From an uncultured Acidimicrobiales bacterium (GTDB taxonomy: Bacteria > Actinomycetota > Acidimicrobiia > Acidimicrobiales > SZUA-35), in assembly GCA_937922785.1 (NCBI GenBank), contig CALAJQ010000016.1:158003-222002 (forward strand): a stretch of DNA of 64,000 nucleotides. The letters are read 5' to 3'. The position numbers and the translations under genes were made by a program. This document shows, piece after piece, positions 6,536 to 61,100 of this stretch. Every line of letters begins with the position of its first letter. The first letter of the stretch is position 1. The notes under the pieces are model-generated. The model did no database searches, was not told where the DNA came from, and saw nothing but the letters and a program-made list of their open reading frames with translations.

Positions 6536-6603
6536 AAATCGATTCTGGCGGTGCCCGGGCCCGTAAACGGGTGTGGGTACAGCCGGTTCGGGTAAACAAG
6601 CGA

Positions 6604-6650
6604 GTTATCCACAGATTTTGTGACCTAGCTACTTTTGAGACTTGACCCCC
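6604..6650 (+). repeat. 47-bp dispersed element, copy A (GTTATCCACAG..CCTAG..TTTTGAGACTTGACCCCC)
   Basis: gttatccacagattttgtgacctagctacttttgagacttgaccccc. Matches copies at 19455, 62421 and 55099 (reverse). The last C is the first base (plus strand) of the selD stop codon. Confidence 0.9.
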
Positions 6651-7693
6651 TAAGAGAGCTTGATGGCTCCATTGCCTGTGGTGGTGGTGCCGACTTGAGC
6701 TGCGGTGTGGCCGGAATCGGCTAGTTGGGACAGGACGTCTTCGGCCTGGCCAGGGTCTACTCCAAAGATTAGGCCGCCTGAAGTTTGGGCGTCGGCGAAC
6801 AGCAGCACTGTTGTGTCGTCGTGAGATCCTTGGTCGATGCGATCTTCCATCCAGCTCAGATTGCGTCTTGTGCCGCCCGGAATCATGCCTGCCGCAGCGA
6901 GGTCTTTGGCGCCGGGTAAGAACGGCATTGCTTCAACGTCGAGGGTGACGTTCACGCCCGATTCCAGCGCCATGCGGCCTAGGTGACCAAGTAAGCCAAA
7001 GCCCGTCACGTCGGTGCAGCCAGTTGCTCCTGCCGCCACGGCGATGGCCGAAGCCTTGTCGTTCAGCTTGGTCATCGACTCAATCGCAGCCGCGGCAACC
7101 TCGGCAGAAGCTTTGTCATTCTTGATGGCGGTAGTTATTACGCCGACGCCTAGAGGCTTTGTGATAATCAGCGTTTGCTCTGGCTTAAGGCCAGCGTTGG
7201 TAAGCATCTTGTCGGGGTGAACTTCGCCCACAACACACATGCCGTACTTGGGCTCTGGGTCATCAATCGTATGACCACCGACTACCAGGAAACCGCCGGC
7301 TTCAGCAACATCGGACCCGCCGGCCATTACTTCGCTTAGCAATTCGGTGGACAACTCGTCTACGTTCCAACCCACGAGGTTCAGGGCGATCAGAGGCTTG
7401 GCGCCCATGGCGTAGATGTCAGAAACACTGTTCGCAGCGGCAACTCGGCCCCATGCTCTAGCGTCATCAACCACAGGAGTGATGAAGTCTGCGGTTAGAA
7501 CCAGGGCGCGGTCATCAGACATCTTGTAGACAGCGGCATCATCACCGGTCTCGGTGCCAACAAGAAGGTTTGTGTCCGGGCTTGGGCTTAGGCGACGCAC
7601 CACGTGCGCCAACTCACTAGGAGCGAGTTTGCAGCCTCAACCGGCACCATGACTGAACTGAGTTAGACGAGCTGGATTGGGGGTGTTCGCCAT
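6650..7693 (-). CDS. selD: selenide, water dikinase (selenophosphate synthetase), selenocysteine-containing
   Basis: Track ORF 6650..7612 matches SelD (GDDAAVY..., VSDIYAMGAKP, GGHTIDD). Extending upstream in frame gives MANTPNPARLTQFSHGAG-TGA-GCKLAPSELAHVV. This is the conserved SelD N-terminal loop, with TGA (7639..7637) at the Cys/Sec catalytic position. ATG at 7693..7691. Confidence 0.88.
7594..7633 (-). promoter_or_regulatory. candidate bacterial SECIS hairpin(s) just 3' of the selD UGA
   Basis: mRNA UGAGGCUGCAAACUCGCUCCUAGUGAGUUGGCGCACGUGGUGCGUCGCC. Hairpin 1 is AACUC/GAGUU with a 9-nt loop, plus a lower GC/GC extension starting 4 nt after the UGA. Hairpin 2 is an overlapping 7-bp stem GCGCAC..GUGCGU with loop GUG. 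Confidence 0.45.
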
Positions 7694-17979: not shown

Positions 17980-18105
17980 AATTCGCTCTCATTCTTGTGA
18001 CATCTAGGTTCGCGTGCGACCGCGCCGCTTGCGTGCAACGGTAGCTGGCCAGAACGATCAGCTAAGCGCTCGACACGGATATCTTGAGCCGACTACGTTG
18101 CCGAT

Positions 18106-19431
18106 GTGACCAATACTGACACCAAAAATCTCTCTGCTGACGTCGTAATTATTGGTGCTGGCGTAATTGGCTGCGCACTGGCATTGGAACTGGCAAGGCG
18201 GGGCCACAAGACCATCAACGTTGATAAGGCAAGCGCCGCCGGGGCTGGGTCGACAATCAACTCGTGCGCCATTGTGAGGTTCAGCTACTCCACCGAGCAC
18301 GGAGTCAACTTCGCGTGGGAAGGCGGTCACTACTGGGCCAATTGGGCCCAATACATCGGGGCCGAGGACGAACTGGGTCTCATCGAGTTTCACGAGGTCG
18401 GCCAGCTGGTTCTCACAATGGACGGAGACCAACACGCAACCCGGGTTACCGAGTTGTGGGAGAAGTTGGACATTCCTCACGAGAAGCTAACTGTGGAACA
18501 AATCGCTGAGCAGTACCCCTGGCTCGACCTCGGTCTGTACGGCCCGCCCGCTCGACCTGAAGATCCTGACTTCTGGCGTGAATCAGGCGGTCAGCTGACT
18601 GGCGGCGTGCGGACCAAGAACGGAGGCTATGTTTCCGATCCGCAGCTTTCCTGTCACAACCTACAACGCGGTGCTGAGGCAGAAGGTGGTGAGTTCAGAT
18701 TCAACACTACGGTTAGTGGAATCGTTCAGGCCGATGGCCGAGTCGCTGGCGTCGAGCTTTCTGATGGTTCGGTAATTGGCGCGAAAGTTGTTGTAAATGT
18801 GGCTGGTCCACATAGTTCGATCATCAACAAGATGGCGGGCGTCTATGACTCAATGAACATCAAGACTGCGGCTCTGCGCCACGAAGTCCATCACGTCCCA
18901 GCACCTCCCGAGGTCGACTTCTTGGCCAACGGAGTTGTCGCCGCTGACAACGACACCGGAATCTACTTCCGACCAGAGGTTGGCAACAACGTTCTCATCG
19001 GGAGCGGTGATCCGGAGTGTGACGTGAAGGAATACGTAGACCCCGATAACTATGACAACGCCGTGTCTGAGGCCCAGTGGAATGCCCAGGTGCTGCGAGC
19101 CAATCGGCGTATTCCAACTTTGGGTGTGCCCCATGAAAAGAAGGGCATCGTTGATCTCTATGACGTCTCCGACGATTGGCTGCCCATCTATGACCGCACC
19201 GATCTTGATGGTTTCTACGTAGCCATTGGCACCAGCGGCAATCAGTACAAGAATGCGGGGGTTGCCGGCCAGGTGATGGCGGATCTGATCGAGGCAGTGG
19301 AGGCCGGGCACGACCACGACAACGAGCCGTTGCAACTAACAGGCCGCTACACCGGTCGGGACATCGACATGTCTGCCTACAGCCGAAACCGAGAGATCAA
19401 CAGCGAGTCCTCGATGTCGGTCCACGGCTAA
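18106..19431 (+). CDS. FAD-dependent oxidoreductase (DAO/sarcosine-oxidase-beta-like)
   Basis: N-terminal ADVVIIGAGVIGCALALELARRG dinucleotide fold. 441 aa. Confidence 0.75.
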   Translation: MTNTDTKNLSADVVIIGAGVIGCALALELARRGHKTINVDKASAAGAGSTINSCAIVRFSYSTEHGVNFAWEGGHYWANWAQYIGAEDELGLIEFHEVGQLVLTMDGDQHATRVTELWEKLDIPHEKLTVEQIAEQYPWLDLGLYGPPARPEDPDFWRESGGQLTGGVRTKNGGYVSDPQLSCHNLQRGAEAEGGEFRFNTTVSGIVQADGRVAGVELSDGSVIGAKVVVNVAGPHSSIINKMAGVYDSMNIKTAALRHEVHHVPAPPEVDFLANGVVAADNDTGIYFRPEVGNNVLIGSGDPECDVKEYVDPDNYDNAVSEAQWNAQVLRANRRIPTLGVPHEKKGIVDLYDVSDDWLPIYDRTDLDGFYVAIGTSGNQYKNAGVAGQVMADLIEAVEAGHDHDNEPLQLTGRYTGRDIDMSAYSRNREINSESSMSVHG

Positions 19432-19454: not shown

Positions 19455-19501
19455 GTTATCCACAGATCAGACAACCTAGACAGTTTTGAGACTTGACCCC
19501 C
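19455..19501 (+). repeat. 47-bp dispersed element, copy B
   Basis: gttatccacagatcagacaacctagacagttttgagacttgaccccc. Ends 1 nt before the ATG of the 1063-aa BNR protein gene. Confidence 0.9.
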
Positions 19502-19502
19502 T

Positions 19503-44086: not shown

Positions 44087-44626
44087 GTGCAGAACATTAG
44101 ACCCGCTGGAAGTGGCGCCATGTCCGATTGTGGTGCCTTTTTAAGACCGCAGTTATCTCCATTTGCGGCGCTCACCTTTGCTGTTGCTGACGGAATTGAC
44201 CCGGCCGATTGGCCAACGGCTGACGGAAGTCGGGTTGCTGATAGCCAGCTGGGCCATGCGGCCGGTTGGGGGTGTGAAGTCAGAGCCGAACACATCATCC
44301 TGCTTGACCCACTTGGCGAAGGAATACTCAAGGCTGATCGGCCGGAGCTAAGCGAAGCGTGGGTGCACCAGGTTCGTTCCACCAACAGCGCAGCGGTATT
44401 CTTAGTGCCGGAGACAGTAGCTTCTGAACGAGCTGGCGACGCGCTCAAACAAACCAGCGAGTGGGCGATGGCGGCGCTAGCAGGCAACGATCTGGCTCTT
44501 CGAGCAGCAACAGTTCGCACGTCGATTGCTGACGGGGCGTTTGATCCACCCAAGGTCGGGCGTAACGATCCTTGCCATTGCGGGTCAGGCAAGAAGTTCA
44601 AGCATTGCCATGGCCGGAAGGTCTAG
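44087..44626 (+). CDS. SEC-C motif domain protein
   Basis: The C-terminal [19 protein letters not shown] is the SecA-type metal-binding SEC-C motif. The antisense ORF 44083..44601 is rejected. Confidence 0.75.
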
Positions 44627-44642
44627 GTATTAGGTTGGTCAA

Positions 44643-45158
44643 ATGGCGTTAACAGCACTATTAGGTTCGGTACTCGGAGCACGAAGCGGTCGAAAGCTTG
44701 GTCGGCTCTTGGGTGGAAGTACAGGCGCAATGATTGGCGGAATGGCTGGCTCAATGTTCGGCGGCCGCAACCTATCTCGCATCAGCAAATTGCTTCCAGG
44801 CAGGGGCGACGACGACGGAGGAGACGATGTTGAGCCAATCAATGAGGACGAGGCTCGAGTAATCATCCGGGCGATGTGTAACTCGGCCAAAGCTGACGGT
44901 GTGATTGATGATGCCGAGATGGACTCAATCATGGGGCAACTCGAGGGGCTTGACGGAGACGATGAAGCGTTTTTCCGAGGCGAAATGAGGTCTCCCTTTG
45001 TCAGCGCTCAAGAGATCGCCGATGACACACCGGCAAACCTGAGCGTTGAGGTCTACGCAGTTTCGACGATGTCAATTAATGTCGATAACGAGGCTGAGGC
45101 CACTTACCTGCGAGAGCTCGCTGACGCGCTGGGTGTGGATCCGGAACAGTTCGTATAA
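44643..45158 (+). CDS. TerB-like (DUF533/YebE-type) protein
   Basis: Gly-rich N-terminus, acidic linker, then a TerB-fold pattern IIRAMCNSAKADGVIDDAEMDSIMGQL...YLRELADALGV. Confidence 0.7.
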   Translation: MALTALLGSVLGARSGRKLGRLLGGSTGAMIGGMAGSMFGGRNLSRISKLLPGRGDDDGGDDVEPINEDEARVIIRAMCNSAKADGVIDDAEMDSIMGQLEGLDGDDEAFFRGEMRSPFVSAQEIADDTPANLSVEVYAVSTMSINVDNEAEATYLRELADALGVDPEQFV

Positions 45159-47048: not shown

Positions 47049-47101
47049 AATTGGTGACTGGTAGCCAGGTCGGTTCGGAATTGGTGGCTGGTAGCCAGGT
47101 C
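47049..47101. repeat. 23-nt unit repeated at a 30-nt period (AATTGGTGRCTGGTAGCCAGGTC)
   Basis: Units at 47049..47071 and 47079..47101 with one mismatch. The second overlaps the stop of the NadX-like gene. CCAGGTC(A/G)G recurs at 47035, 47065 and 47095, and inverted at 46972. Confidence 0.8.
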
Positions 47102-47915
47102 AGATCACGATGGGGGCTACGCGGTTTGTGATGCACCGGGCCAGACTGAGCGCGGCTAGCGCTGAAGTCTTGGGGTTGGCCGGCAATGGACTGTTGGCAA
47201 TTACTACTTCCATCTGGCCGAAGGGTCCCTTTGCCTTTAGTTCGTGCCGGTTGGTTGTTGCGTCCGGGTCAGCGACAAGAGTGATCTTGGTGGCTTGGGG
47301 GCCGATGCCAGCCAAAGCAGTGGTCATCGCAACGTTGGCGTTCTTGGGAAAGGCCGAGGCTGTTTCAGAAGCGTTAGCTGAATAGAAGGCGTCAGGCCTG
47401 CTTAGGGAATCCAAGTCACACAAATCTTCACCCAACGTGCCAAGCCAAGCTTTGGGCGGCTTAACGATTCGGTGTTCGACCGTGTCCACCCCCATCAGCT
47501 TCGCGGCGGCCAGCGCTTCAACTCCGGCTAAGGCTCCGGGCTGAATGATCACGCTGGAGTCGCCAACGATTGCATCATGGCGAAGTAATCGAAGTAGGTC
47601 GGCGTCGGCAAAGGCTGAAACTGAGGAGACTATGAAGTCGACACCGGCCGCCGCCGAGGCCTTGCCCCAGGGCTCAACACTGTCTCGGCCAGCAGCCTCA
47701 GCCACGACGTCTGGTCTACACGACACAAGCTCGGCCGGATCTGAAAGTAGTCGGGCACTGGCGGGCATGGCTGGTCGCTTAGCAGCGACATCTCGAACGG
47801 CAACCCCCACTATCTCAACCATTGAGGGGTCAAGCAGCCCGGCGACGGTCTGAGAAATTGCGCCCCAGCCGACCAATACCAAACGAGTGGGGGCGTCGGT
47901 CCGGCTAGCTGACAT
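47100..47915 (-). CDS. aspartate dehydrogenase (NadX) family protein
   Basis: VLVGWGAISQ N-terminal Rossmann. FPKNANVAMTTALAG...ADPDATTNRHEL..GPFG...NPKTSALAALS matches NadX C-terminal domain motifs. Confidence 0.75.
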   Translation of the reverse strand: MSASRTDAPTRLVLVGWGAISQTVAGLLDPSMVEIVGVAVRDVAAKRPAMPASARLLSDPAELVSCRPDVVAEAAGRDSVEPWGKASAAAGVDFIVSSVSAFADADLLRLLRHDAIVGDSSVIIQPGALAGVEALAAAKLMGVDTVEHRIVKPPKAWLGTLGEDLCDLDSLSRPDAFYSANASETASAFPKNANVAMTTALAGIGPQATKITLVADPDATTNRHELKAKGPFGQMEVVIANSPLPANPKTSALAALSLARCITNRVAPIVI

Positions 47916-47918
47916 GGG

Positions 47919-48872
47919 TCAGACCTGAAGACCGCATTGTTCAAACGCCTCGCGGGTAGTCGCTTTTTCTTGGTCCGTGAGCTCCAACAGTGGGAAGCGA
48001 ACTGCACCTCCTACTTGGCCGAGGAGCTCTTGCCAATATTTCTGGTGCGAGTGAGGTTTCTCGGCAGGTCGAGTTCCCCAAAGCGCCTCACGGACGGGGT
48101 CGAGACTGCGGCTTATTGCCTTGGCCTCATCGGCGTTGCCGGCAAAGGCAGCTTGGGTGTAGTCGTGCATCCGTCGATCCTTGGCGCTTTGTAACAAGAA
48201 CGGCGGAGACGAACACAAGTAGAGCTTCCAATTGAGTTCAAGGATGTTGTCAAGCCATTCTGGTTCTGACGCTGTGCTTACCTGGATGCGGTCAGAAGCC
48301 AGCCTGGTTAGCTCTGAATACATCGAACGTTCAACGCTGTACTTGATTGCCACAACGTTCTCAAGGTCGGCGAGCCGGTTGCATAGCTCGGGTGTCATCA
48401 GATAGCCGCTTGCGGGATGGCTCCAAAGAGCAATTCCGATGTCGACACTGTCGGAGATCTTCTTGTAGTAGCGAAGTAGGGTCTCGTCATATTCGGTGAA
48501 AAAGTGAAGCGCCGGAGCGTGAACCACTATGTAATCTGCTCCACACGTTTCAGCGTGGCGAGCTAGATCGATGACCACATCCAGATTCTGGTCTGAGCAT
48601 GACATGATCGTGTGGCCGTGATCGCCGGTGGCTTCAACGGCCAGTTCGAATGAGCGTTTGCGTTCTTCGATGCTCATCGAGAAGAACTCGCCCTGTTTGC
48701 CAGACACAAACAGGCCTTCGATTCCCAGTTCTTGAGTCCAGTGCCGGACGTTCTCGGCAAAGCCTTCTTCGTCGATTCGATGGTCCTGGGTAAAGGGCAT
48801 AAGCGCCGCCGCCCAGATGCCTTTCATATTCTCGCGGGCGTAATCTTTCGCACCGCTTCGGGTGTAGTCCAT
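47919..48872 (-). CDS. dihydrodipicolinate synthase/N-acetylneuraminate lyase family (class I aldolase/dehydratase)
   Basis: DapA-family layout with the Schiff-base Lys context VVAIKYS and GLFVSGKQGEF. Confidence 0.75.
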   Translation of the reverse strand: MDYTRSGAKDYARENMKGIWAAALMPFTQDHRIDEEGFAENVRHWTQELGIEGLFVSGKQGEFFSMSIEERKRSFELAVEATGDHGHTIMSCSDQNLDVVIDLARHAETCGADYIVVHAPALHFFTEYDETLLRYYKKISDSVDIGIALWSHPASGYLMTPELCNRLADLENVVAIKYSVERSMYSELTRLASDRIQVSTASEPEWLDNILELNWKLYLCSSPPFLLQSAKDRRMHDYTQAAFAGNADEAKAISRSLDPVREALWGTRPAEKPHSHQKYWQELLGQVGGAVRFPLLELTDQEKATTREAFEQCGLQV

Positions 48873-48902
48873 TAGAGGTCCTTACTCCTTAATAAGTACT
48901 GG

Positions 48903-50339
48903 TCAAACGATCGAGACGCTGTGGGACACGTTTTTTACAACTGTGTAGTGGGCAAGGCCCTCGGCTCCGCCTTCGCGGCCATAGCCGCTTGACTTGACAC
49001 CGCCGAAGGGCGTCTCCGGAAGTGACGCTTCCAAGGTGTTAATAGACAGGTTGCCTGCCTCGACCTTGTCAACCATTCGGTCGGCGTAGTCGGCCCTGTT
49101 GGTGAAGCCATAGGCAGCCAGGCCATATGGCACAGAGTTAGCCCGCTCGATCGCCGTGTCTAGGGAGTCCACCGAGTTGACGATTGCAAGAGGTCCGAAC
49201 GGCTCCTCTTGCATGACTCGCGCATGGTCCGGGACGTTGGCCAACACGGTTGGTTCAAAGAAATATCCGGTTGAGCCGATTCGGTGGCCGCCGGTCATCA
49301 GGTCTGCTCCGCATTCGGTGGCGTCGTTTACCAGCGCCGACATCGCGGCGAGCCTTCGCTCATTTGCCACTGGCCCCATCTCAATACCTGACTCCATGCC
49401 ATCACCCACGATGGTTTCGGCCGCTCGTTTTGTGAAGACATCAAGAAACTGTTCAAAGATGCTGTCGTGCACAAAGAACCGTGTGGGCGACGTGCACACC
49501 TGCCCTGCATTGCGCATTTTGCGGATCGCCGAAGAGATAGCAGCGGCTTCGACGTCTGTGTCTTCACAGACAATCACCGGGGCGTGTCCACCCAGCTCCA
49601 TGAGGACGGGCGTCATGTGGTTTGAAGCAAGCCCGGTCAGGTGTCGTCCGACAGCTGTGGAACCAGTGAAGGCCACAAGTTTCACTTCGTCAGCAGGAAT
49701 CAGGTGGTCAGAGATGTCCGCCGGTATTCCGAACACGAGGTTAAGTACACCGGGAGGAAGTCCAACGTCGTGGAACGCCTGAACGATGTGCATTGCTCCA
49801 GCCGGGGTCTCCTCGGCCGCTTTCAAGATGATCGAACAACCCGATGCCACCGCACCGGCAATCTTTCGCGCTGGCTGGCTCATCGGGAAGTTCCAAGGGG
49901 AGAATGCCGCCACCGGACCGATTGGCTGATGATGAACTATGTACTTCACGCCTGGAGCGCTCGGGATAACCCGTCCGTAAGTGCGGGTTGCTTCGCCGGC
50001 ATCCCATTCGAAGAACTCACACCCGCGGATTACTTCAAGCTGCGCCTGACTGAAAGGCTTGCCGTGTTCGAGTGTTATCGAGTGTGCAATTTCGTCCTGG
50101 CGTTGACGAAGAAGGGCGGATGCCTCGCGAACTAAATCGGCCCGATGCTTCGGTGAGGTCTGGCTCCAGACGCCGAACCCTTCGTGGGCAGCGGCTAGCG
50201 CGTCTTCCAAGTCTTGGGGCTGGGCAATTGGGAAGCGGCCGATTTCTTTCTCGGTGGCTGGGTTGATGACAGGGCCGTCACTTGCGGCGGTCCGCCAAGA
50301 ACCGTTGATGTACATCTTTAGTTCGGGGTATCGCATCAT
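48903..50339 (-). CDS. NAD(P)-dependent aldehyde dehydrogenase
   Basis: FSPWNFP, FTGSTAVG, ELGGHAP and catalytic Cys in NAGQVCTSP. Start placed at MMRYPELKMYINGSW (AAAGGA 8 nt upstream). The track ORF start 50399 overlaps the TDO gene. Confidence 0.88.
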   Translation of the reverse strand: MMRYPELKMYINGSWRTAASDGPVINPATEKEIGRFPIAQPQDLEDALAAAHEGFGVWSQTSPKHRADLVREASALLRQRQDEIAHSITLEHGKPFSQAQLEVIRGCEFFEWDAGEATRTYGRVIPSAPGVKYIVHHQPIGPVAAFSPWNFPMSQPARKIAGAVASGCSIILKAAEETPAGAMHIVQAFHDVGLPPGVLNLVFGIPADISDHLIPADEVKLVAFTGSTAVGRHLTGLASNHMTPVLMELGGHAPVIVCEDTDVEAAAISSAIRKMRNAGQVCTSPTRFFVHDSIFEQFLDVFTKRAAETIVGDGMESGIEMGPVANERRLAAMSALVNDATECGADLMTGGHRIGSTGYFFEPTVLANVPDHARVMQEEPFGPLAIVNSVDSLDTAIERANSVPYGLAAYGFTNRADYADRMVDKVEAGNLSINTLEASLPETPFGGVKSSGYGREGGAEGLAHYTVVKNVSHSVSIV

Positions 50340-50374
50340 TGGTAACAGCTGTCCTTTCGGGGGAGGGGCATGAA

Positions 50375-51187
50375 TTAGAAGGCCGTCCGGATGGCCCAAA
50401 GGTCGGGGAATGCAGGTCGGAAGAGTGTGGTTTGCAGGTAGGCCGCTCCGTCGGAGCCGCCGGTGCCGGGCTTAGTTCCGATAGTGCGGCGCACCATCAT
50501 CACGTGTCGGTAACGCCACTCTTGGAGACCTTCGTCGAGGTCAGTCAAGGTCTCACAAAGGCCAGCGAAAGCTTCGTCGCTGTATCGCTCGACGATGCTG
50601 GCTTGGACTACTGGGTTCGGGGTTATTGGCTCACGAACATCGCGGTCTAGAACCTCGTTGGGCACCGCAAAGCCCTCACGGTGCATCAGGTGTACAAACG
50701 CGTCCCACAAGGTTGGTTCTTCGTATCGTCGTGTGAGTCGTTCACCCTCGTCACCCACAAACCACTCGATCTGAATTCGGTCCTTTATCCCTAGAACAAA
50801 TTCCAGTTCGCGGAATTGAGCCGATTGAAATCCACTTGCGTTGGCGAGAAAGTTGCGAAAGCTTGCAAACTCAGCAGGGGTCATGGTCTCCAGAACATCA
50901 AGCTGGCCAACTAGAGTTTTCATGATCTTTAGAACACGCTTCAGGTGGCTTTGAGCCGCACCGATCTTGTGGTCGTTGAGCATCCCAACGATGTAGTCGA
51001 CCTCGTGCAGAATTTGCTTGAACCAGAGTTCGTACACCTGGTGGATGATTATGAAGAGCGTTTCGTCGTGTTCTGGCTTGTTGCTGTCTGGGTCTAATGA
51101 GACGCACTGTTGAAGTGACAGCAGTTCGCCAATTCTGAGATAGCTGCCGTACGTGAAGTCGTCTTTGTTTTCGAATGGAAGGCTCAT
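50375..51187 (-). CDS. kynA: tryptophan 2,3-dioxygenase
   Basis: TYGSYLRIGELLSLQQ, HDETLFIIIHQVYELWFKQILHE, RRTIGTKPGTGGS. Start at MSLPFEN. A longer start at 51250 would overlap the KMO gene by 41 nt. Confidence 0.9.
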   Translation of the reverse strand: MSLPFENKDDFTYGSYLRIGELLSLQQCVSLDPDSNKPEHDETLFIIIHQVYELWFKQILHEVDYIVGMLNDHKIGAAQSHLKRVLKIMKTLVGQLDVLETMTPAEFASFRNFLANASGFQSAQFRELEFVLGIKDRIQIEWFVGDEGERLTRRYEEPTLWDAFVHLMHREGFAVPNEVLDRDVREPITPNPVVQASIVERYSDEAFAGLCETLTDLDEGLQEWRYRHVMMVRRTIGTKPGTGGSDGAAYLQTTLFRPAFPDLWAIRTAF

Positions 51188-51209
51188 AGTTTTTCTCGGG
51201 ATGGATTGA

Positions 51210-52559
51210 TCATGAGGTTGAAAGGGCTTCGGGATCGGCCAGAGGGTCAAGCTGAGGAAGGACAGGCAGCCCCGAAACCAGCTGGTCGACGTCGAGTGTG
51301 GGATCAGCGATTGTGTCGGCGATGAGCTTGGCTTGGGCTTCTGCTCGGGACTGGGCTTCGGAGTAAGGCATTGTCGAAAACATCACCATGTTGTAGCGAG
51401 GGCTTAGATGCTCGGGGTGGCGTTGTTCCAGCTCGAGGGCTAAAGCTCGCTTAGTCAAATAGTCTGGATCAATCACCCCGGAGCGCATCTCGACGTAGTT
51501 CTGTAGCGCCATGGCGGCGATTGCGTCGGCGTCGGGTTTGCGCTGGGCCTCATAGCGCTGGAACGCGCCGGCGATGTCACCTGGAGTTTCGGCGAGGTGA
51601 CGGTGAAGTAGCCGAGCCGATTCCATGGCAGCATTCATGCCTTGCCCGTGGAACGGAACTATTGCGTGGGCGGCGTCACCGACCAACACAGCTTTGTCCT
51701 GGTAGCTCCAGCCGGTGGCCCGCATCGTGCCCAGCGGGCCTGTTGGGTTCTCTAGAAACTGGTCAGCCAGGTCGGGAACGAGGGCAGCAAAGTCGGCGAA
51801 CTCGCCACCAAAGAATGAGTTGATCTGATCGTGGTTTGTCAGGTCATCGAATGTGGGTGTGGGGGCGAAGAGCGTAACTGTGAAGTCGCCTTCGGGATTA
51901 GCGAGAGCGATCAGCATGAACTCTCCACGAGGCCAGATATGGAGCGCATGCGGATCAAGCATGTGGCCGCCGTCAGTTGCTGGAGGCAGCGTCAGTTCTT
52001 TGTAGGAATGATCCAGCCATTCGGTCTCGAACTCACAAGCACCTTTTGCTGCGATCGCCTTGCGCACTCGGGACCCAGCTCCATCTGCCCCGTAGATAAC
52101 ATAAAATGGCTCAGTCCGACCGCCGACGAAATGGATGATTGACTGGTCAAGATCAACCGATTCAATACGGGCCTCGAACTCAATGGTGACTTGCCCAGTT
52201 GCCTCCGCTGCATCTAACAAGATGGCGTTGAGGTCGGTTCGAGACACGGAATGAATTACTTCATGAGTCTTGGTGCCGTAAGGCTGGAGATCCGGCGTTG
52301 GGTCGCCAACGGCGTGGACCATTCGCCCCTTCATTGGGATGGTTATGGCATCAACCTGTTCGATCACTCCAACGTCGATGAGGGGGACTATGCCCCTAGT
52401 TGCGAGCGCCAGGTTGATTGAGCGGCCGGCGTCGATATCGGTGCGGCGCAGATCCGGTCGGCTTTCATACATCGTCACTTCGTGGCCTTGGCGGGCAAGG
52501 TAGATAGCAAGCAGTGAACCGGCCTGTCCTGCGCCAGCAACAACAATCGGCCCGCTCAT
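51210..52559 (-). CDS. kmo: kynurenine 3-monooxygenase (FAD-dependent)
   Basis: VVAGAGQAGSLLA, GRSINLALATRG, PMKGRMVH, GDAAHAIVPFHGQGMN. ATGA overlap with the kynureninase stop. Confidence 0.88.
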   Translation of the reverse strand: MSGPIVVAGAGQAGSLLAIYLARQGHEVTMYESRPDLRRTDIDAGRSINLALATRGIVPLIDVGVIEQVDAITIPMKGRMVHAVGDPTPDLQPYGTKTHEVIHSVSRTDLNAILLDAAEATGQVTIEFEARIESVDLDQSIIHFVGGRTEPFYVIYGADGAGSRVRKAIAAKGACEFETEWLDHSYKELTLPPATDGGHMLDPHALHIWPRGEFMLIALANPEGDFTVTLFAPTPTFDDLTNHDQINSFFGGEFADFAALVPDLADQFLENPTGPLGTMRATGWSYQDKAVLVGDAAHAIVPFHGQGMNAAMESARLLHRHLAETPGDIAGAFQRYEAQRKPDADAIAAMALQNYVEMRSGVIDPDYLTKRALALELEQRHPEHLSPRYNMVMFSTMPYSEAQSRAEAQAKLIADTIADPTLDVDQLVSGLPVLPQLDPLADPEALSTS

Positions 52560-53800
52560 ATGACTATCTCGTCAAGGATTTGAACGAAGCGTTCGATATC
52601 GGCGAAAGAGTTGTACAAAGGCACAGGTGCCACACGGATGACGTCGGGCTCTCGCCAATCACAAAGAACACGAGCTTCTGCCAATTCCTCATAGACACGT
52701 TTGCCGTCGCCATTGGTGACCCGAAGTGCGTATTGGCAGCCCCTTTGGTTCATCGCACTTGGGGTGATGTTCTGAACTCGGGCTCCAAGGGTTTCAGCCA
52801 AGATGCGGTCGAAGTAGGTGATCTGTAGTTCCGACTTTTGCCGCATCGCAGGTACGCCGCCCGCTGCAGTGATGATGTCTAGGGAGGCCCGCAACGCCGC
52901 CATCGGAAGGATTGGTGCGTTCGAAAGTTGCCACGACTCGACCGTCTGAATGGCCTCAAAGGTAGTGGCCATCTCGAACCGGCTGGAGGCTTCGGTGCCC
53001 CACCAACCCAAGAACTTGGGGAGTTCCTGATCTGCGATGTGGCGTTCGTGAACAAACGCTCCCGCCACTCCTCCCGGTCCGCTGTTGAGGTATTTGTAGG
53101 TGCACCAGGCGGCGAAGTCAACGTCCCAATCGTGAAGGGAGAGTTCAACGTTTCCGACCGCGTGTGCCAGATCGAAACCGACTACTGCGCCTACGTCGTG
53201 GCCGGCCTGGACAATGTCGGCCATCGGCAAGACTTGGCCTGTGTAGTACTGCACACCCGGAAGCAAAACCAGCGCCAGCTCATCACCGTGGGTCGCAATG
53301 GCACTCAAGATGTCTTCGGGTCTCAGTGTCTCCTCTCGGTCCCTGGGTGAGATCAGCACCAGCGATTCAGATGGATTGAAACCTCTCTGGGCAATTTGAG
53401 ATTCAGCAGCGAAATGATCGGACGGGAAGGCGTGGTCTTCGATCAGGATCTTGTGTCGCTTTGCCGTTGGTCGGTAAAAGCTGACCATCATGAGATGGAG
53501 GTTGACAGTGAGGCCGTTCATAGCAACGACTTCTTCAGACCGGGCGCCAGTAATCGAAGCGAACTGGTCGGTAAGTAACCCGTGGTAGTCCTTCCACGCC
53601 AGCTTGCCAGTGAAGTGGCCTTCAACTCCCAGCGCGGCCCAACGGTCAAGCTCTTCGGTTACGTAGTCTCGAGTGGCCTTGGGCATGGCGCCCAGCGAGT
53701 TGCCGACGAGGTAGATGCCATCGGGTATCTCAAATTCTGATCGAAAGTGTGCCAGCGGGTCAGCAGCGTCTAGTTCGGTGGCGGTCAAAAACTCGGTCAC
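52556..53800 (-). CDS. kynU: kynureninase
   Basis: YLVGNSLGAMPK, NGLTVNLHLMMVSFYRP, WCTYKYLNSGPG (PLP Lys context). GTGA overlap with the HAAO stop. Confidence 0.9.
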   Translation of the reverse strand: MTEFLTATELDAADPLAHFRSEFEIPDGIYLVGNSLGAMPKATRDYVTEELDRWAALGVEGHFTGKLAWKDYHGLLTDQFASITGARSEEVVAMNGLTVNLHLMMVSFYRPTAKRHKILIEDHAFPSDHFAAESQIAQRGFNPSESLVLISPRDREETLRPEDILSAIATHGDELALVLLPGVQYYTGQVLPMADIVQAGHDVGAVVGFDLAHAVGNVELSLHDWDVDFAAWCTYKYLNSGPGGVAGAFVHERHIADQELPKFLGWWGTEASSRFEMATTFEAIQTVESWQLSNAPILPMAALRASLDIITAAGGVPAMRQKSELQITYFDRILAETLGARVQNITPSAMNQRGCQYALRVTNGDGKRVYEELAEARVLCDWREPDVIRVAPVPLYNSFADIERFVQILDEIVI

Positions 53801-54387
53801 AGACGTCCGGCTTTCCCCGGATGCACGGTCTCACAATGTGGACAGGTTCTGGCTGCCTCGTCTGCTTCGAACGCAGCGAATAGAGGTGGCAGATCCCTGT
53901 CTATCGCTTGCACCTGAAGCTCGACCCGATGCACCAAGTTCGAGCAGTTAGGGCATGCCCATTCGAAGCCGTCTAGTTCGCCAATGTCGCGTGCGTATTC
54001 AACAACAAGGCCAATCGAGTCTGGGTCTGGGCGCTGGGGCGAGTGTCGGAGGTGAGGGGGAAGCAGGTAGACCTCACCCTCGCGAATGGGCATGTCGTGA
54101 GGTTCAGAGCCATGGTCGGGCCAGATGACCAAGTTCATGTCGCCCCTTATTTGGAAGAAGAATTCCTCACGCGGATCATCGTGGAAATCGACCCGCTCAT
54201 TGCCGCCGCCAACGATCATGATGATCATGTCGGCCTCGCGCCAGATCTGTTTGTTGGAAACCGGGGGAGTGAGCTCTTCGCGGTGGTCCTCGATCCACTT
54301 CATCAAGTTGAAGGGCCGACGGGCTGCGGGGTCGGCTGGATCGTATTTGGGCATCGCTGGTGTCTCGTTTTGGTGGCTATCCGGCAC
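53797..54387 (-). CDS. nbaC: 3-hydroxyanthranilate 3,4-dioxygenase
   Basis: Cupin core VGGGNERVDFHDDPREEFFFQIRGDM, PPHLRHSPQR and a C-terminal CPNC...CPHC rubredoxin-like site. GTG 54387 is preceded by GAGGAG at 7 nt. Confidence 0.88.
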   Translation of the reverse strand: MPDSHQNETPAMPKYDPADPAARRPFNLMKWIEDHREELTPPVSNKQIWREADMIIMIVGGGNERVDFHDDPREEFFFQIRGDMNLVIWPDHGSEPHDMPIREGEVYLLPPHLRHSPQRPDPDSIGLVVEYARDIGELDGFEWACPNCSNLVHRVELQVQAIDRDLPPLFAAFEADEAARTCPHCETVHPGKAGRL

Positions 54388-54850
54388 GGGTCATCTCCTC
54401 TGCAATGTTGTTTAAGTTGGCTTCGACTCGGGCAGTCAGTTCTTCAAGCTGCTTGATTAGCGCTGAAAGGTCACCGGCGTCGGCTAACGCCCTTGTGGCA
54501 AGTTCTTGGGCCTGAGCGATAAGGGCAAGCGTAAGTTTCTTACCCGCGGGAGTCATCGAAATGAATCGTTGGCGTTTGTCTTCAGTTCCCAAAGTCCTGG
54601 TCGTGAGGTTCCGCTTTTCGAGACGACGCACGGCATGGGTAACTGTGGGTTGGGGGCTTAACGCCTCTCTCGCCAGATCAATGACCGAGAGCTGATCGTG
54701 TTCGTTCAGCACCGCCATCACTCGCCACTCTGAACGTGAGATTCCGTTTTGGTTTAGGACCGCGTAGAACGGGGCCGACAAAGTCTGATCCGCCTTACGT
54801 AAGAGGTAAGGCAGGTAACTGTCTACAAAGGGCGCGGCGTCATGAGCCAT
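54377..54850 (-). CDS. MarR family transcriptional regulator
   Basis: SRSEWRVMAVLNEHDQLSVIDLAREALSPQPTVTHAVRRLEKRNL winged-helix. First gene of the kynurenine operon. Confidence 0.88.
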   Translation of the reverse strand: MAHDAAPFVDSYLPYLLRKADQTLSAPFYAVLNQNGISRSEWRVMAVLNEHDQLSVIDLAREALSPQPTVTHAVRRLEKRNLTTRTLGTEDKRQRFISMTPAGKKLTLALIAQAQELATRALADAGDLSALIKQLEELTARVEANLNNIAEEMTRAG

Positions 54851-54863
54851 GCATCAAAGATAG

Positions 54864-54899
54864 ATTCATATGAATAGGAATTCAAGTATTCATTTGAAT
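54864..54899. promoter_or_regulatory. AT-rich palindromes upstream of marR (candidate MarR operators/promoter)
   Basis: Perfect 12-bp palindrome ATTCATATGAAT (54864..54875) and inverted repeat ATTCAA-N8-TTGAAT (54880..54899), within the 55-nt gap upstream of marR. Confidence 0.5.
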
Positions 54900-54905
54900 C
54901 TAGTT

Positions 54906-55094
54906 TCATCGGACTTCGATGGAGATCTCAATCACGAGCGGGTTGACGTTGTCGAAAAGCACCTCTAGCTCTGCGGTGGTGCCTTCAACTAACGGCTCAG
55001 CTAGGCCGATGCACATAACGTGTAGTCCCGCTGGCTCAAAGACAAGGGTTTTGCCAGCGATCAATATGAGCTGCGCATCAGACGCAGGAGTCAT
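54906..55094 (-). pseudogene. PCu(A)C copper chaperone (DUF461) C-terminal remnant
   Basis: The 62-aa ORF ...KTLVFEPAGLHVMCIGLAEPLVEGTTAELEVLF... matches only the C-terminal HxM half of PCuAC proteins (about 150 aa). The signal peptide and the N-terminal His/Met ligands are missing. The ORF begins 4 nt from the 47-bp element copy D. Confidence 0.65.
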
Positions 55095-55098
55095 TGAA

Positions 55099-55145
55099 GG
55101 GGGTCAAGTCTCAAACTTGGCTAGGTTGGCAAACCTGTGGATAAT
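55099..55145 (-). repeat. 47-bp dispersed element, copy D (inverted orientation)
   Basis: The reverse complement reads attatccacaggtttgccaacctagccaagtttgagacttgaccccc. It overlaps the GTG start (55137) of the DUF1028 gene. Confidence 0.9.
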
Positions 55146-57199: not shown

Positions 57200-58573
57200 T
57201 TAGGTCCTGAAAGTTGCCCGGAACTCGGCTCCACCGATTGAGGAGTCGCCAACAGTTATTGTGGCGCCGTGGCTATCAGCAATGTGTCTCACAATTGCCA
57301 AACCAAGGCCCGAGCCACCTTCGCCGCGGGCACGAGCTTCATCCAACCTGGTAAATCGTTCGAAGATTCTTTCGCGATTCTCAGTAGCAATCCCCAGGCC
57401 ATCGTCACCAACTATCAGGGTGACCGTGCCCGCATTCTCTTCAATGGCAAGAGAGATTTTTGTGGCAGCGTGACGAACTGCGTTGTCCACCAGGTTGCGG
57501 ACCAGTCGGCCGAGATCGCTGCGTGAGCCCCGAAGCTCGGCTGGCACCACGCCCGACAGATCAACGGTTACCGAGCCTGTTGCCGCCACAAGCTCGGCCT
57601 CGCTAAAGAGCAATTCGTCCAGAGCAATTGTTGACTCGGTCCCAACTGGTCGGCCAGCTTCGGTCGAGGCAAGGAACAGCAGGTTGTCAACGAGGTTCCG
57701 TAGCCTGTCGCTCTCGTTACCAAGCTGCGCCTGAAGCGCTTGCCATCGAGAGTCACTAATTTCGGCAGTATCAACAAGCGCCCGAAGGTTGGCAACCGGA
57801 CTCTTTAACTCGTGAGATGCGTCGGCGGTGAACTGTCGCAGCGAATAGTCGTGCGCCTCAATCCGATCAAGCATTGCGTTAACAGTCACCGCTAGGTCTT
57901 GAATCTCATCGCGTGAGTCTGGGACATTGACTCGGCCACCGAGGTTTGTGCCACTGATTTCAGCCGCTCGAGACCTGATCCCCTCAACCGGTTGGAGCGC
58001 CCGGCCAGTTGTCATCCAGGTGAGTGCAGCAACTAACGCCAGCAGAGGTGGGAGACCTATCAACAGAAGGCGTCCGAGCGCTGTGACTGCTTCGTCGACA
58101 GTTTCGGTTTCGGCGCCGGCCACAACCACAAGCTTCCCGCCGTCCGCCCCGGCCGAAGCTAGCCGTAGCGTCGACAACTCGGTTTCGTTGCGTCCGTGGC
58201 CGGCTTCGATAACCAGAAGTTCAACTACGTCGATTCCTCCAATGGTTTTGGGAACCGGACTATCGACAGGTTGGAGCGCAACACTGGCTGCAACAGTTTG
58301 ACCGCCAGGAGTCCCGATCCAGACCAGGGCCTCCTCATCGTCAAGTAGGGTCACCAATTGCTGCGGGTCGCTGCCTTGATCAATGAGATTCGCTCGATCC
58401 TGAACCTGTTGAAGCAGCGACTGGTCGAGAGTTGCGGTCAGCTGGTTGCGGTACAGCAGCAACAGCAACAGCGAGCCCATGATCATTGCAACTGCGACAA
58501 CGGCGGCCGCCAATGCGGTGGATTGCCCGCGCACTGTTCGCAGTGCTCGCCGCATCGAGGCGAACCTATCCAC
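57200..58573 (-). CDS. sensor histidine kinase (two TM, HAMP, HisKA, HATPase)
   Basis: H-box SHELKSPVANLRAL, N-box LVDNAVRHA, G-boxes GDDGLGI and GGSGLGLAIV. Confidence 0.9.
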   Translation of the reverse strand: MDRFASMRRALRTVRGQSTALAAAVVAVAMIMGSLLLLLLYRNQLTATLDQSLLQQVQDRANLIDQGSDPQQLVTLLDDEEALVWIGTPGGQTVAASVALQPVDSPVPKTIGGIDVVELLVIEAGHGRNETELSTLRLASAGADGGKLVVVAGAETETVDEAVTALGRLLLIGLPPLLALVAALTWMTTGRALQPVEGIRSRAAEISGTNLGGRVNVPDSRDEIQDLAVTVNAMLDRIEAHDYSLRQFTADASHELKSPVANLRALVDTAEISDSRWQALQAQLGNESDRLRNLVDNLLFLASTEAGRPVGTESTIALDELLFSEAELVAATGSVTVDLSGVVPAELRGSRSDLGRLVRNLVDNAVRHAATKISLAIEENAGTVTLIVGDDGLGIATENRERIFERFTRLDEARARGEGGSGLGLAIVRHIADSHGATITVGDSSIGGAEFRATFRT

Positions 58574-59243
58574 CGTCGGAATCCAACATGTAGCCGGCGC
58601 CGCGCACCGTCACGATTGACTGCCTGCCGAACGGCGTATCGATCTTCTTTCGCAACGAGCCTGCGTAGACCTCAACAATGTTTGGCCCTCCGTCGAATGC
58701 GAAGTCCCACACATGAGCCAAGATCTCAGTTTTTGAAACGACTTGACCGACCCGTGACATCATGAATTCCAGGATGGCAAATTCTCGCGCTGTGAGATCA
58801 ATGGCCTCGTCGCCTCGCCGAACCTCCCGAGTTGCGGGATCTAGCGAAAGGTCACCGGCAGTCATTACAACGGGCCGTTCGCTACCTGCCCGACGAAGCA
58901 AAGCTCGCAAGCGAGCAAGTAGGACCTCGAACGCGAACGGCTTAGTCAAATAATCGTCGGCACCGGTGTCTAAGCCTTCTGCCTCATCAAGATGGCCATC
59001 TTTGGCAGTCAACATCAAGATGGGCGTCCAGTCGCCTCGGTCTCGGATGGTCTCACACACCTTGAAACCGTTGATCTTCGGAAGCATGAGATCCAGCACG
59101 ATTGCGTCATAGTCAACCTCGGCGGCGTACCACAGCCCTTCTTCGCCGTCGGCTGCTACGTCTACTGCGAACCCATGGTCTTCCAGGCCTGTTCTTAGCG
59201 ACTGGGCCATGACAGATTCATCTTCTACTACCAGGATCCGCAT
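58566..59243 (-). CDS. OmpR/PhoB family response regulator
   Basis: MRILVVEDE...LDLMLP receiver and a C-terminal winged helix (LTAREFAILEFMM...VEVYAGSLRKKID...TVRGAGY). Confidence 0.92.
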   Translation of the reverse strand: MRILVVEDESVMAQSLRTGLEDHGFAVDVAADGEEGLWYAAEVDYDAIVLDLMLPKINGFKVCETIRDRGDWTPILMLTAKDGHLDEAEGLDTGADDYLTKPFAFEVLLARLRALLRRAGSERPVVMTAGDLSLDPATREVRRGDEAIDLTAREFAILEFMMSRVGQVVSKTEILAHVWDFAFDGGPNIVEVYAGSLRKKIDTPFGRQSIVTVRGAGYMLDSDGG

Positions 59244-59249
59244 TGCCGC

Positions 59250-59852
59250 CTACCCTATATTCGCCCGTTGTGGTTCTACGGGGACCGTTGGCCTGGGTGG
59301 CTTTATTTGAGCCCTGCGGCTGGTCGCAAAGATCCGGTATCCGGTAAGAAAAACAACTAGCAGAGTCATCACGCCGGTTCCGGCAATATAGAACGGGTTT
59401 GCTGCATCTGTTCCGGCTGTTACACCGTGGACCAAGCCAGTCCAGAACAGTAGCCAGCTGGTCATGTGCACACGTTTCCACCAGCGGCGAGGGATTCGTT
59501 TCATGAACACCGAAGTCAGTTGCACTGCAACTAACAGATACATCGACACGATGCCCCATGCCACTGCGCCCGGTTGCCAGTTCGACGCAAAGGGAACAAA
59601 CAGGTCAATCAGACCAAACTCGACGTAGCTGTCAGCAACGAGCGCTGCCATGTGGACGCCGGTGAAAGTTACTGAAAGTCCTCCGAGCCAACGGTGCAAA
59701 GACAGCAACCACTTCGGGGCCGGTGCGCCCTTCATGATCTTGGTTGACAGCGCAAGCCCCCAAATCACTGACAGGCCACAGAGAGCTAAGGCAACTATTC
59801 CGCCCGAGCGCGCCACGTACCACCAGAGTTGTTCGTTGTCTAATAAGTGCAC
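59250..59852 (-). CDS. ferric reductase-like / MsrQ-like transmembrane heme-binding protein
   Basis: 200 aa, 6 TM, conserved His in LHRWLGG and VHM...HG positions, typical of YedZ/MsrQ-like domains. GTG start overlaps the apbE end. Confidence 0.7.
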   Translation of the reverse strand: MHLLDNEQLWWYVARSGGIVALALCGLSVIWGLALSTKIMKGAPAPKWLLSLHRWLGGLSVTFTGVHMAALVADSYVEFGLIDLFVPFASNWQPGAVAWGIVSMYLLVAVQLTSVFMKRIPRRWWKRVHMTSWLLFWTGLVHGVTAGTDAANPFYIAGTGVMTLLVVFLTGYRIFATSRRAQIKPPRPTVPVEPQRANIG

Positions 59853-60814
59853 GTCTCATACCTCTCATATGTCTCGTACCTTTCAAACTCGCAAAGTCGA
59901 TCAATCGACCGGTCGGCAAAAACTCTCAGAGCGGCACATCGTGGAGGGCAGTCGGGCGAGTCTGGCTCTGAACCCAAAGTCTCCGGCTGGCAAACAAGCG
60001 CAGTCGCGGCAGCTTCGGCCCACCAGGCTTCACCGGCAATCACCGAGGCAAGATCGACGCCGGGCACGCAGGAAAGTCCGGTGTCGGGATCTAGGAGGTG
60101 GTGGCGTTCTAGTCCGCCATGATTCCAGCGTCGCTTCTTGGTTGTACTGGTTGCCAGTCCGCAGTCGTTCAGTCGTACCGAGGTGATGGGACTGTCCAAG
60201 ACGGCGGGTTCCCTTATTGCGATTAGCCACGCGTCGCCTGAGGGTGGTGTTCCCCGAACTCGAAGGTCTCCACCGAGATTAACCATCGCGCCCCAGGCCC
60301 CATCGTTCATGAGTTGGGCCGAGATCATGTCGGCTGCTAGACCTTTGCCGATTCCCCCTGGGTCAAAACCGATGCCTTTGGGCAGACGGACGGTTTGGTT
60401 CTCACTATCGACGAGAATCTGCCCGCAACTCTGATCCGGGTTCCAGTCTTCAATTTGTTCCGACAGCTGGCACTGGTCAATCGCTGCGAAGCTTCTGTCA
60501 TATCCGAGCTCAACCATCCTGTTGGCCATTGTCGGATTGAAGCGACCTTGTGACAGCCGCCAAGCCAAAACTGACTTCTGAACAAGGCTGACTGTCTCCG
60601 GCGAGACTTTCATGGATCTGCCGTTTGCGTGACTTAGCTGACTGATCTCGCTACCCGGCCTGAATCGGCTCCACAACAGTTCTAGACGCTCGACAGCCTC
60701 AACGGCTTTGGCAACCTTGGTCGGCCCGCAAGGACCTACTGCCAGAACATGGCAGTAGGTTCCCATAGCGGTGAAGCGGGTTTCTGCCGAAGCCCATTGA
60801 ACTTCAACTGCCAC
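59840..60814 (-). CDS. apbE: FAD:protein FMN transferase (ApbE family)
   Basis: FDPGGIGKGLAADM, GDLRV and HHLLDPDTG motifs of ApbE. Unusual C-terminal tandem ERYETYERYET. Confidence 0.85.
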   Translation of the reverse strand: MAVEVQWASAETRFTAMGTYCHVLAVGPCGPTKVAKAVEAVERLELLWSRFRPGSEISQLSHANGRSMKVSPETVSLVQKSVLAWRLSQGRFNPTMANRMVELGYDRSFAAIDQCQLSEQIEDWNPDQSCGQILVDSENQTVRLPKGIGFDPGGIGKGLAADMISAQLMNDGAWGAMVNLGGDLRVRGTPPSGDAWLIAIREPAVLDSPITSVRLNDCGLATSTTKKRRWNHGGLERHHLLDPDTGLSCVPGVDLASVIAGEAWWAEAAATALVCQPETLGSEPDSPDCPPRCAALRVFADRSIDRLCEFERYETYERYETCTY

Positions 60815-61100
60815 TTGACTCAGTCACAGGTTTTGTTTTGCGCGCTTGTGGTGCAGTAGTAGGCCGTGCGTCGGTGTGGGGTTCGGGCGCTTCGACGACG
60901 ACGATGCGCCGGATTACCGGAGCGGCTGTGGGCTCAGGCTTACTTTCGGCTGCCCCGGCCATAGCGCCGACCATGGCCAAGCTAGACCCAACAGCCGCAC
61001 CAACAGCAACCCAGCGGCTTGCTTTGGCGGCCGGTTTGGGCTTGGCCGATTTTGGCTTGGGAGACGCCGTATCGGCGGGGCGTACTTCGTTAGTCATCAT
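60804..61100 (-). CDS. small single-pass membrane protein (hypothetical)
   Basis: MMTNEVRPADTASPKPK...RWVAVGAAVGSSLAMVGAMAGAA...: basic N-terminus, one TM, Pro-rich tail. Start chosen at the ATG ATG overlapping the upstream stop. The basic extension of the track ORF overlaps the upstream gene. Coding status is uncertain. Confidence 0.4.
   Translation of the reverse strand: MMTNEVRPADTASPKPKSAKPKPAAKASRWVAVGAAVGSSLAMVGAMAGAAESKPEPTAAPVIRRIVVVEAPEPHTDARPTTAPQARKTKPVTESSGS

Follow-up and report, generated by a model that had tools for sequence, protein, structure and literature searches.

In this work we have analysed a short DNA element that recurs along a 64-kb stretch of the genome of an uncultured Acidimicrobiales bacterium; the whole of this stretch is called the window below. 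Pfam scans of essentially all ORFs in the window identified genes of ordinary metabolism and regulation, namely selD, putA, a kynurenine-pathway operon with a MarR gene, PEP carboxylase and two-component systems, and they revealed no transposase, integrase, recombinase or resolvase in the 64 kb. We also found no dnaA, dnaN, parAB or dif-like genes, no GC-skew switch and no tRNA or tmRNA genes in the window. Homologues of an FAD oxidoreductase encoded near the element are annotated as coming from Acidimicrobiales or Actinomycetia MAGs, and the best of them beyond its own 90%-identity cluster is 81% identical. The element is 47–48 bp long and occurs in four copies of fixed length with unrelated flanks, all of which lie where an earlier note on this DNA had reported them:

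Copy A, 6604 to 6651 (47-bp core 6604–6650), plus strand: between a convergent luciferase-like gene (stop at 6535) and selD.
Copy B, 19455 to 19502 (47-bp core 19455–19501), plus strand: between the FAD oxidoreductase (DAO-family) gene and a BNR gene.
Copy C, 62421 to 62468 (47-bp core 62421–62467), plus strand: in frame inside a 368-aa ORF (61568–62674, minus strand).
Copy D, 55098 to 55145 (47-bp core 55099–55145), minus strand: between a PCuAC remnant and a DUF1028 gene.

The dispersed element of 47–48 bp is real, as several counts confirmed. The 17-mer TTTGAGACTTGACCCCC occurs four times in the window versus 0.16 expected, all four perfect TTATCCACAG sites of the window lie within the copies, and the only TTATCCACA sites in the 64 kb are those of the four copies. 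When the copies were aligned with 60-nt flanks, the similarity ended at the element borders, except for a CG that precedes block 1 in copies B, C and D; a T follows each of the four copies invariantly. A profile made from the copies found no additional full, partial or half copy in the 64 kb. The consensus can be written as (CG)-R-TTATCCACAG-N8-ACCTAR-N4-K-TTTGAGACTTGACCCCC-T, and the anatomy it describes is one of three invariant blocks with variable spacers in between, with 34 positions invariant across the paralogues. Block 1 is CG-R-TTATCCACA(G) and has a perfect DnaA box inside it, block 2 is AACCTAG, whose opposite strand contains TAGGTT, and block 3 is (TTT)TGAGACTTGACCCC(CT). In the coordinates of copy B these are:

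Block 1 core TTATCCACA, 19456 to 19464, plus strand: invariant in the four copies and in the orthologous copy of the relative L134.
Block 2 AACCTAG, 19473 to 19479, plus strand: the reverse strand reads CTAGGTT, in which TAGGTT is a TAnnnT hexamer of the -10 type.
Block 3 core TGAGACTTGACCCC, 19487 to 19500, plus strand: invariant in the four copies and in the same orthologue; it contains GAGACT (NAnnnT) and TTGACC.

The earlier note had pointed out the perfect DnaA box, and the 9-mer indeed fits the consensus TTWTNCACA in all four copies and in the L134 orthologue. The note had also described one spacer as having 4 to 5 variable nucleotides; this proved to be a T/G difference with no indel, and the spacing is strictly fixed across the four window copies. 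Read forward, each copy carries stop codons in three different frames, TAG (TAA in copy C), TGA and TGA, at element positions 22, 32 and 39, and in the reverse orientation two frames are closed, both as had been noted.

The gene contexts of the copies were checked by Pfam or NCBIfam and with public gene calls, and the contacts described earlier for copies A, B and D were borne out. The last bases of copy A, C and T, form part of the stop codon of selD (6650–6652, minus strand), which is full length. The reverse strand of block 2 in this copy reads TAGGTC, not TAGGTT. Copy B begins 23 nt past the stop of the DAO-family gene; a single nucleotide separates its 47-bp core from the ATG (19503) of the 1063-aa BNR/sortilin-like gene, and its 48-nt end is flush with this ATG. 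The CCCC end of copy D lies 4 nt from the ATG of a 62-aa PCuAC ORF (54906–55094, minus strand), which covers only positions 62–104 of the 109 positions of the PCuAC profile, that is, the C-terminal part. Since the 5′ half of PCuAC was not found in the window, this ORF is a gene remnant that ends at copy D. The opposite end of copy D holds the GTG (55137, within block 1) which is called as the start of DUF1028, and the length of this protein, 290 aa, fits its homologues (the 295-aa protein P0150, 99% coverage).

The setting of copy C proved to be more complex. The claim that it is embedded in frame in a methyltransferase ORF holds as regards the frame, its 48 nt making up 16 codons in the sole open reverse-strand frame, but the 368-aa ORF, publicly called 'methyltransferase', is a read-through of two genes joined by copy C. 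Residues 1–69 belong to a small separate gene with a leaderless start (TAAGAT, 6 nt, GTG at 62674); this ORF of about 69 codons has no family match, and it passes through copy C into the methyltransferase gene without any stop codon. The methyltransferase gene carries start signals of its own, a GAAGGA Shine-Dalgarno site and a GTG near 62380, and its homologues among 1.84 billion representative proteins (HMMER) are stand-alone proteins of about 262–285 aa which align from query residue 101–107 or so. We also asked whether the 368-aa ORF could encode a natural fusion protein into which 16 aa were inserted, and rejected this, because every methyltransferase homologue stands alone and starts near query residue 100.

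On the CCCC side of both C and D, the coding sequence joins the element directly and appears to be cut short. The CCCC end is 0–4 nt from coding sequence in 4/4 copies, and on the TTATCC side there are spacers of 23–68 nt or a gene with its own signals. Is this contact more than a matter of chance? The earlier note had placed the element always on an ORF boundary; the contacts themselves stand, but they arise partly from very short intergenic regions and leaderless starts. With intergenic gaps as small as those of this genome, one would expect some ORF borders to be touched; even so, the flush contact on the CCCC side exceeds what random placement would produce.

The neighbourhood of copy A has further features. 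A short GC-rich hairpin (CCCGTAAACGGG) lies in the window at 6545–6600, between the stop of the luciferase-like gene and copy A, and may be a common terminator of the convergent luciferase-like/selD pair, in which case selD transcripts would cross copy A before reaching the hairpin. The selD gene (6650–7693, minus strand) has an in-frame TGA at 7637–7639 within the motif SHGAG-U-GCK, and for this reason SelD most likely contains selenocysteine and begins at ATG 7693; gene callers give only the part after the TGA, 317 aa with a start at 7603.

Gene order at copies B, C and D differs from that in relatives. In three relatives, what comes after the DAO gene is not BNR but an MTTB-family gene and a gene for a TetR-like regulator. 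The kynurenine/NAD operon with MarR (47100–54850) is kept in L135 (GCA_020628865.1) in rearranged surroundings, where DUF1028 stands at the other end of the operon beside purK/purE and an MFS gene follows MarR. Between D and C, at 57200–61220, there are five consecutive minus-strand genes with negative plus-strand GC skew, which encode a histidine kinase, a response regulator, a ferric-reductase-like protein, ApbE and one unknown protein; nearly all other genes of the window, minus-strand ones included, have positive skew. This part of the D–C segment could be a recent inversion or foreign DNA. A Ter-like fork trap or an inversion was also considered and set aside: the skew reversal extends only over 57.2–61.2 kb, is not bounded by D and C and amounts to a weak hint.

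The earlier note, which saw no internal hairpin and no covariation, had favoured a DNA-level site over a structured RNA, and this view was strengthened. A search of the 64 kb with the covariance models of Rfam 15, which the note had suggested as a check for a known ncRNA, gave nothing at the gathering threshold or at E<=5. None of the eight folds of the four copies on both strands was better than those of shuffled sequences (z from -0.42 to +2.06) and they had no helix in common. The strand relative to adjacent transcripts is inconsistent as well: the copies would fall in a 3′UTR, between cistrons on one strand or the other, or within a divergent promoter region. As far as these tools reach, RNA-level explanations are excluded, and since no RNA-like structure was found on either strand, a DNA-level site is the better reading. 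No hairpin or palindrome is present in any of the four copies, which excludes elements of the IS200/IS605, REP and attC types. There are no terminal inverted repeats, blocks 1 and 3 not being inverted copies of each other, and the flanks of the four copies contain no direct repeat that would represent a target-site duplication.

Searches for further carriers of the element were largely negative. The two-block pattern had no match in viral contigs and none in JGI metagenomes, and plasmid BLAST and a literature search found no match and nothing relevant, respectively, in agreement with the earlier note, which did not recognise it as any described element. In 185,579 representative genomes, the 17-mer gave ten single chance matches in unrelated phyla, none of them with block 1. 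The 16-mer TTGAGACTTGACCCCC had at least 120 matches in metagenomes, none with block 1 or 2; many of these code for the TPR peptide (A)LRLDP or are part of other, unrelated repeats. This 16-mer encodes L-R-L-D-P, as in the TPR motif ALRLDP, which is one reason for its frequency in metagenomes, and among the loci L014–L133 it is found inside unrelated repeat families (for example L014/L023/L035/L049/L065) and in tandem units (L072/L096/L100). A longer match, at L082, was rejected as chance since it lies inside an 828-aa ORF of an AT-rich organism.

Evidence for selection on the element came from relatives. In all we compared the four paralogues, one diverged orthologue (L134, Logan SRR31070297) and one near-identical strain (L141, ENA ERZ6863697). 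L134 has the same DAO–element–BNR arrangement and hence an orthologous copy of B. The DAO genes of the window and L134 share 89% protein identity, and 57% of their fourfold degenerate sites differ. Despite this divergence, TTATCCACA, AACCTAG and TGAGACTTGACCCC are identical in copy B and its orthologue, with 0/29 block positions changed, whereas the remaining positions have accumulated 11 substitutions and one indel (one inserted base). The contrast between blocks and spacers has a Fisher p of about 2.5e-5 on a conservative count, and the probability that 30 neutral positions would all be unchanged at the divergence of L134 is about 8e-12. The BNR ATG touches the element in both genomes, following CCCC after 0 nt in the window and 2 nt in L134. 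This comparison provides strong evidence that the three blocks are under purifying selection at the locus of copy B. In L141, which is about 99% identical to the window, copy C is present with a single substitution (CCCCC to CCCTC).

The spacers tell us about the origin of the copies. At the 19 variable columns the window copies match one another at 9–15 positions (B and C at 15), while each of them matches the L134 orthologue at only 5–7 (copy B itself at 7/19). That the spacers of the window copies are more alike than those of B and its orthologue suggests that the element was copied within the lineage. The four window copies also have in common several states that differ in L134: the G after CACA, the TTT before GAGAC, the fifth C and the spacing between blocks 1 and 2, which in L134 are changed from G to A, TTT to AAG, C to A and by an additional 1 nt. 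A, C and D may derive from the B lineage after the split, by a copy-and-paste process. It is also possible that the sites co-evolve with a lineage-specific binding factor. The best explanation of these observations is that the element is lineage-specific, acts as double-stranded DNA and is kept by purifying selection at the level of the host.

What could such a site do? A clue is offered by the promoters of this genome. The hexamer TAnnnT stands exactly 6 nt before the start codon of 12/56 genes in the window, versus an expectation of 0.12, and a few more genes have it at a gap of 5–8 nt. We found no consensus -35 in the promoters of the window and few Shine-Dalgarno sites. Together these features indicate a heavy reliance on leaderless mRNAs and -10-only promoters. 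Examples are:

Leaderless starts, 18088–18108, 44625–44645 and 54850–54868 (minus strand): TAnnnT, 6 nt, then ATG or GTG.

The DAO promoter (TCGACA, 18 nt, TACGTT, 6 nt, GTG) is conserved in L134. The hexamer TAGGTT, which is found on the reverse strand of block 2 and went unremarked in the earlier note, also serves as the -10 of the gene at 44643, and the NAnnnT hexamers CACAAT and GACTAT act as -10 elsewhere in the window. In copy D the plus-strand TAGGTT (55122–55127) is the only TAnnnT upstream of DUF1028 and lies 9 nt before the GTG at 55137, versus the genome norm of 6 nt. In copy C the reverse-strand TAGGTT points at the methyltransferase gene. Copy A is the only one without a co-oriented gene on either side, and it is also the only one in which the reverse hexamer no longer ends in T. 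GAGACT of block 3, on the forward strand, precedes the BNR ATG by 9 nt in the window and by 7 nt in L134; the BNR gene has no Shine-Dalgarno site, as noted earlier, and no other TAnnnT upstream. A scan with the sigma-70 consensus gave a single weak match, in copy D, which relies on spacer bases. TTGACC of block 3 fails as a forward -35, because no TAnnnT is found 16–19 nt downstream in any copy.

We tentatively propose that the element is a dispersed, selected and portable promoter/operator cassette, a function predicted from its sequence and surroundings which we regard as possible and prefer to the others, while giving it less than an even chance. The cassette would be bound by RNA polymerase and at least one sequence-specific protein, and DnaA would be the obvious candidate for block 1; we infer both the promoter activity and the binding of DnaA. 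On the reverse strand, TAGGTT of block 2 would serve as the -10, and transcription would start at about the edge of block 1. In this way copy D would give DUF1028 both its -10 and its GTG start, and copy C would drive the methyltransferase gene. Block 3, with GAGACT and then TGACCCC on the forward strand, runs right up to the BNR ATG in two genomes, so that BNR would have no upstream DNA other than the element for a start of its own. The firing of the promoter would be regulated through block 1 and the remainder of block 3 as operator sites, and the element would have been copied to several intergenic sites within this Acidimicrobiales lineage. Several observations speak against this proposal. 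Copy A lies between two convergent gene ends, and the reverse hexamer of copy B, conserved in L134, would direct antisense transcription into DAO, so no single promoter direction explains all copies. The gap between hexamer and start is 9 nt in D and B (7 nt in L134) and not the usual 6, GAGACT is a poor -10, and 34 invariant positions amount to much more information than either a promoter or a usual operator requires. The flush CCCC ends, the truncated PCuAC and the lost stop at C look like DNA joining rather than regulation. What lowers our confidence in the cassette is that neither copy A nor the reverse face of copy B has a gene to act on, together with the 9-nt gaps and the number of invariant positions.

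None of the described families with which we compared the element fits it, and it can be placed only broadly, among short interspersed intergenic elements or propagated regulatory sequences. Matus-Garcia, Nijveen and van Passel (NAR 2012) reportedly described putative mobile promoters, in which identical 5′ regulatory DNA is found upstream of non-homologous genes. Our element resembles these in that the same non-coding sequence stands directly upstream of the unrelated BNR (B), DUF1028 (D) and methyltransferase (C) genes, has a -10-type hexamer and was seemingly copied within the lineage. It differs from them in that copy A has no downstream gene on either strand and in that its invariant part is much longer than a promoter requires. 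Like MIRU, the element is short, dispersed and intergenic and touches the start and stop codons of flanking genes, and like Correia elements it may supply promoter signals. Unlike MIRU, REP, BIME, ERIC and Correia elements, it has no palindrome, hairpin, terminal inverted repeats, tandem arrays or TA duplication, and it consists of conserved blocks with freely evolving spacers. While MIRU are tandem units of 40–100 bp in operons and contain small ORFs, this element occurs as single units in varying orientation, with the forward strand closed in all frames. It lacks the terminal inverted repeats and target-site duplication of a MITE, and no IS or MITE structure was found in association with it.

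Could the element instead be one end of a mobile or recombining system, namely its terminal recognition sequence, with the gene for the enzyme located elsewhere in the genome? According to this explanation, which we consider rather unlikely, CCCC(C)T would be the outer terminus joined to the target, the genes on the TTATCC side would be cargo and the conserved blocks would be binding sites of the enzyme; analogues would be one-ended transposition in the Tn3 family, or an HUH or site-specific recombinase system. It best explains the flush CCCC end in all four copies, the loss of the 5′ half of PCuAC beside D, the small ORF that enters C and finds no stop before the methyltransferase gene, whose homologues stand alone, the breaks in gene order at B, C and D and the spacer likeness of 15/19 within the genome versus 7/19 to the orthologue, which implies copying after the lineage split. 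As many as 34 invariant positions are typical of ends bound by a transposase, and D(-) and C(+) flank 7.3 kb as an inverted pair with GGGGG facing outward; part of this segment has reversed GC skew. However, every defining feature of such a system that could be tested is lacking. No transposase, integrase or recombinase was found in the 64 kb, A and B have no partner end in the window, no copy has a hairpin, and plasmid BLAST brought up no related plasmid-borne element. The flanks of D and C read ATTGA and GAGGC, without a target-site duplication, and selD next to copy A is full length. We examined D–C as a transposon inserted in PCuAC and rejected it: the sequences flanking D and C do not make up two halves of a single gene, the ORF beyond C is something other than PCuAC, and the PCuAC score does not rise when the protein sequences are joined. 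The explanation also leaves the conservation of copy B in place without a cause, since nothing would keep a solo end intact at a single locus in two lineages across neutral divergence of about 57%, and strong purifying selection on the orthologous copy conflicts with a dead transposon end. The earlier note had listed a recombination or transposition end, a protein-binding site and a cassette boundary as candidates; the changes of gene order and the truncated PCuAC agree with the list, but it cannot be narrowed to a mobile end because there are no terminal inverted repeats, target-site duplication, hairpin or recombinase gene in the 64 kb.

Comparison with two known kinds of mobile DNA leads to a similar picture. 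The inverted repeats of the Tn3 family are 38–48 bp long and begin with GGGG. Our element resembles them in its length of 47–48 bp, its blocks, its outer end AGGGGG on the reverse strand and the inverted arrangement of D and C, and the outer ends of the solo copies are joined directly to coding DNA, in part truncated, as in one-ended transposition. It differs from them in having no 5-bp target duplication and no inner TAAG motif, no tnpA or resolvase is present in the 64 kb, no sequence in the plasmid collection matches it, and it is held in place by selection. With integron attC sites it shares the location at ORF borders, conserved outer blocks with a variable middle and the junctions of differently arranged gene blocks, but it has no symmetry of inverse core and core and no hairpin, its sites are 7–36 kb apart in mixed orientation, and there is no integrase.

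A further explanation, which we judge unlikely, is that the element is a binding site at the level of the chromosome without a direct role in transcription. Such a site would be asymmetric and possibly polar and would be bound by DnaA and another lineage-specific protein; it could serve in DnaA titration or reactivation (as datA and DARS do), as a landmark for the fork or for segregation (Ter, parS) or as a domain boundary. The perfect high-affinity DnaA box is invariant in all five independent sequences, and a perfect 9-mer under selection in every copy is reminiscent of DnaA boxes outside oriC, in datA, DARS and DnaA-regulated promoters. The very high information content and near identity of the copies are as in parS, Ter and dif, the element is found in every kind of intergenic context, including the convergent one of copy A, and it is conserved at an orthologous locus. 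Three of the four copies are co-oriented with the positive plus-strand GC skew, and four copies in 56 kb could mean regional clustering. The restriction to one lineage and the L134-specific states would fit a binding protein that co-evolves with its sites. On the other hand, the hallmarks of an origin or terminus are absent from the window, and D is opposite in orientation to C only 7 kb away, which misfits a simple fork trap. In contrast to the clusters of boxes in datA, DARS and oriC, each copy has one box in a larger conserved module, and neither an AT-rich unwinding element nor origin genes accompany it. The flush CCCC at ORF borders and the start codons at both ends would also be left unexplained.

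It is very improbable that the element is a functionless selfish repeat of the REP/MITE type or an RNA, structured or cis-regulatory. It shares with such elements its short length, dispersal, intergenic location and restriction to one lineage, but strong block-specific selection at the orthologous locus and the absence of a palindrome, terminal inverted repeat and target-site duplication argue against the former, and the lack of any fold above shuffles, of an Rfam match and of a consistent strand against the latter.

The promoter/operator cassette, the mobile end and the chromosome site are not mutually exclusive, and a mobile sequence which was taken over as a regulatory site would fit most observations. 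We also considered a bolder combination, which is quite improbable: the element might be a new mobile module, without hairpin or terminal inverted repeats, that copies itself, or is copied by an enzyme, to gene borders of a streamlined Acidimicrobiales genome and each time installs a two-faced leaderless promoter controlled by a DnaA box. If this were true, unrelated genes would be coupled to the replication initiator, and gene blocks would be joined at the points of rearrangement.

Short interspersed repeats usually form hairpins (REP), are bounded by inverted repeats (MITE) or are neutral, and this element is none of these. Its three blocks, with one perfect DnaA box, are frozen across a divergence that nearly saturates neutral sites, and apparently it has also spread within its lineage. 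If it is one end of a mobile or recombination system that has so far escaped recognition, it flags truncated genes and the junctions of rearrangements and offers a sequence handle for the enzyme. If it is a portable promoter/operator, as we tentatively prefer, it would mean that a genome with minimal leaderless promoters rewires its genes by moving a 48-bp cassette, and it would point to DnaA, or perhaps another factor, as a regulator in uncultured marine-type Acidimicrobiia.
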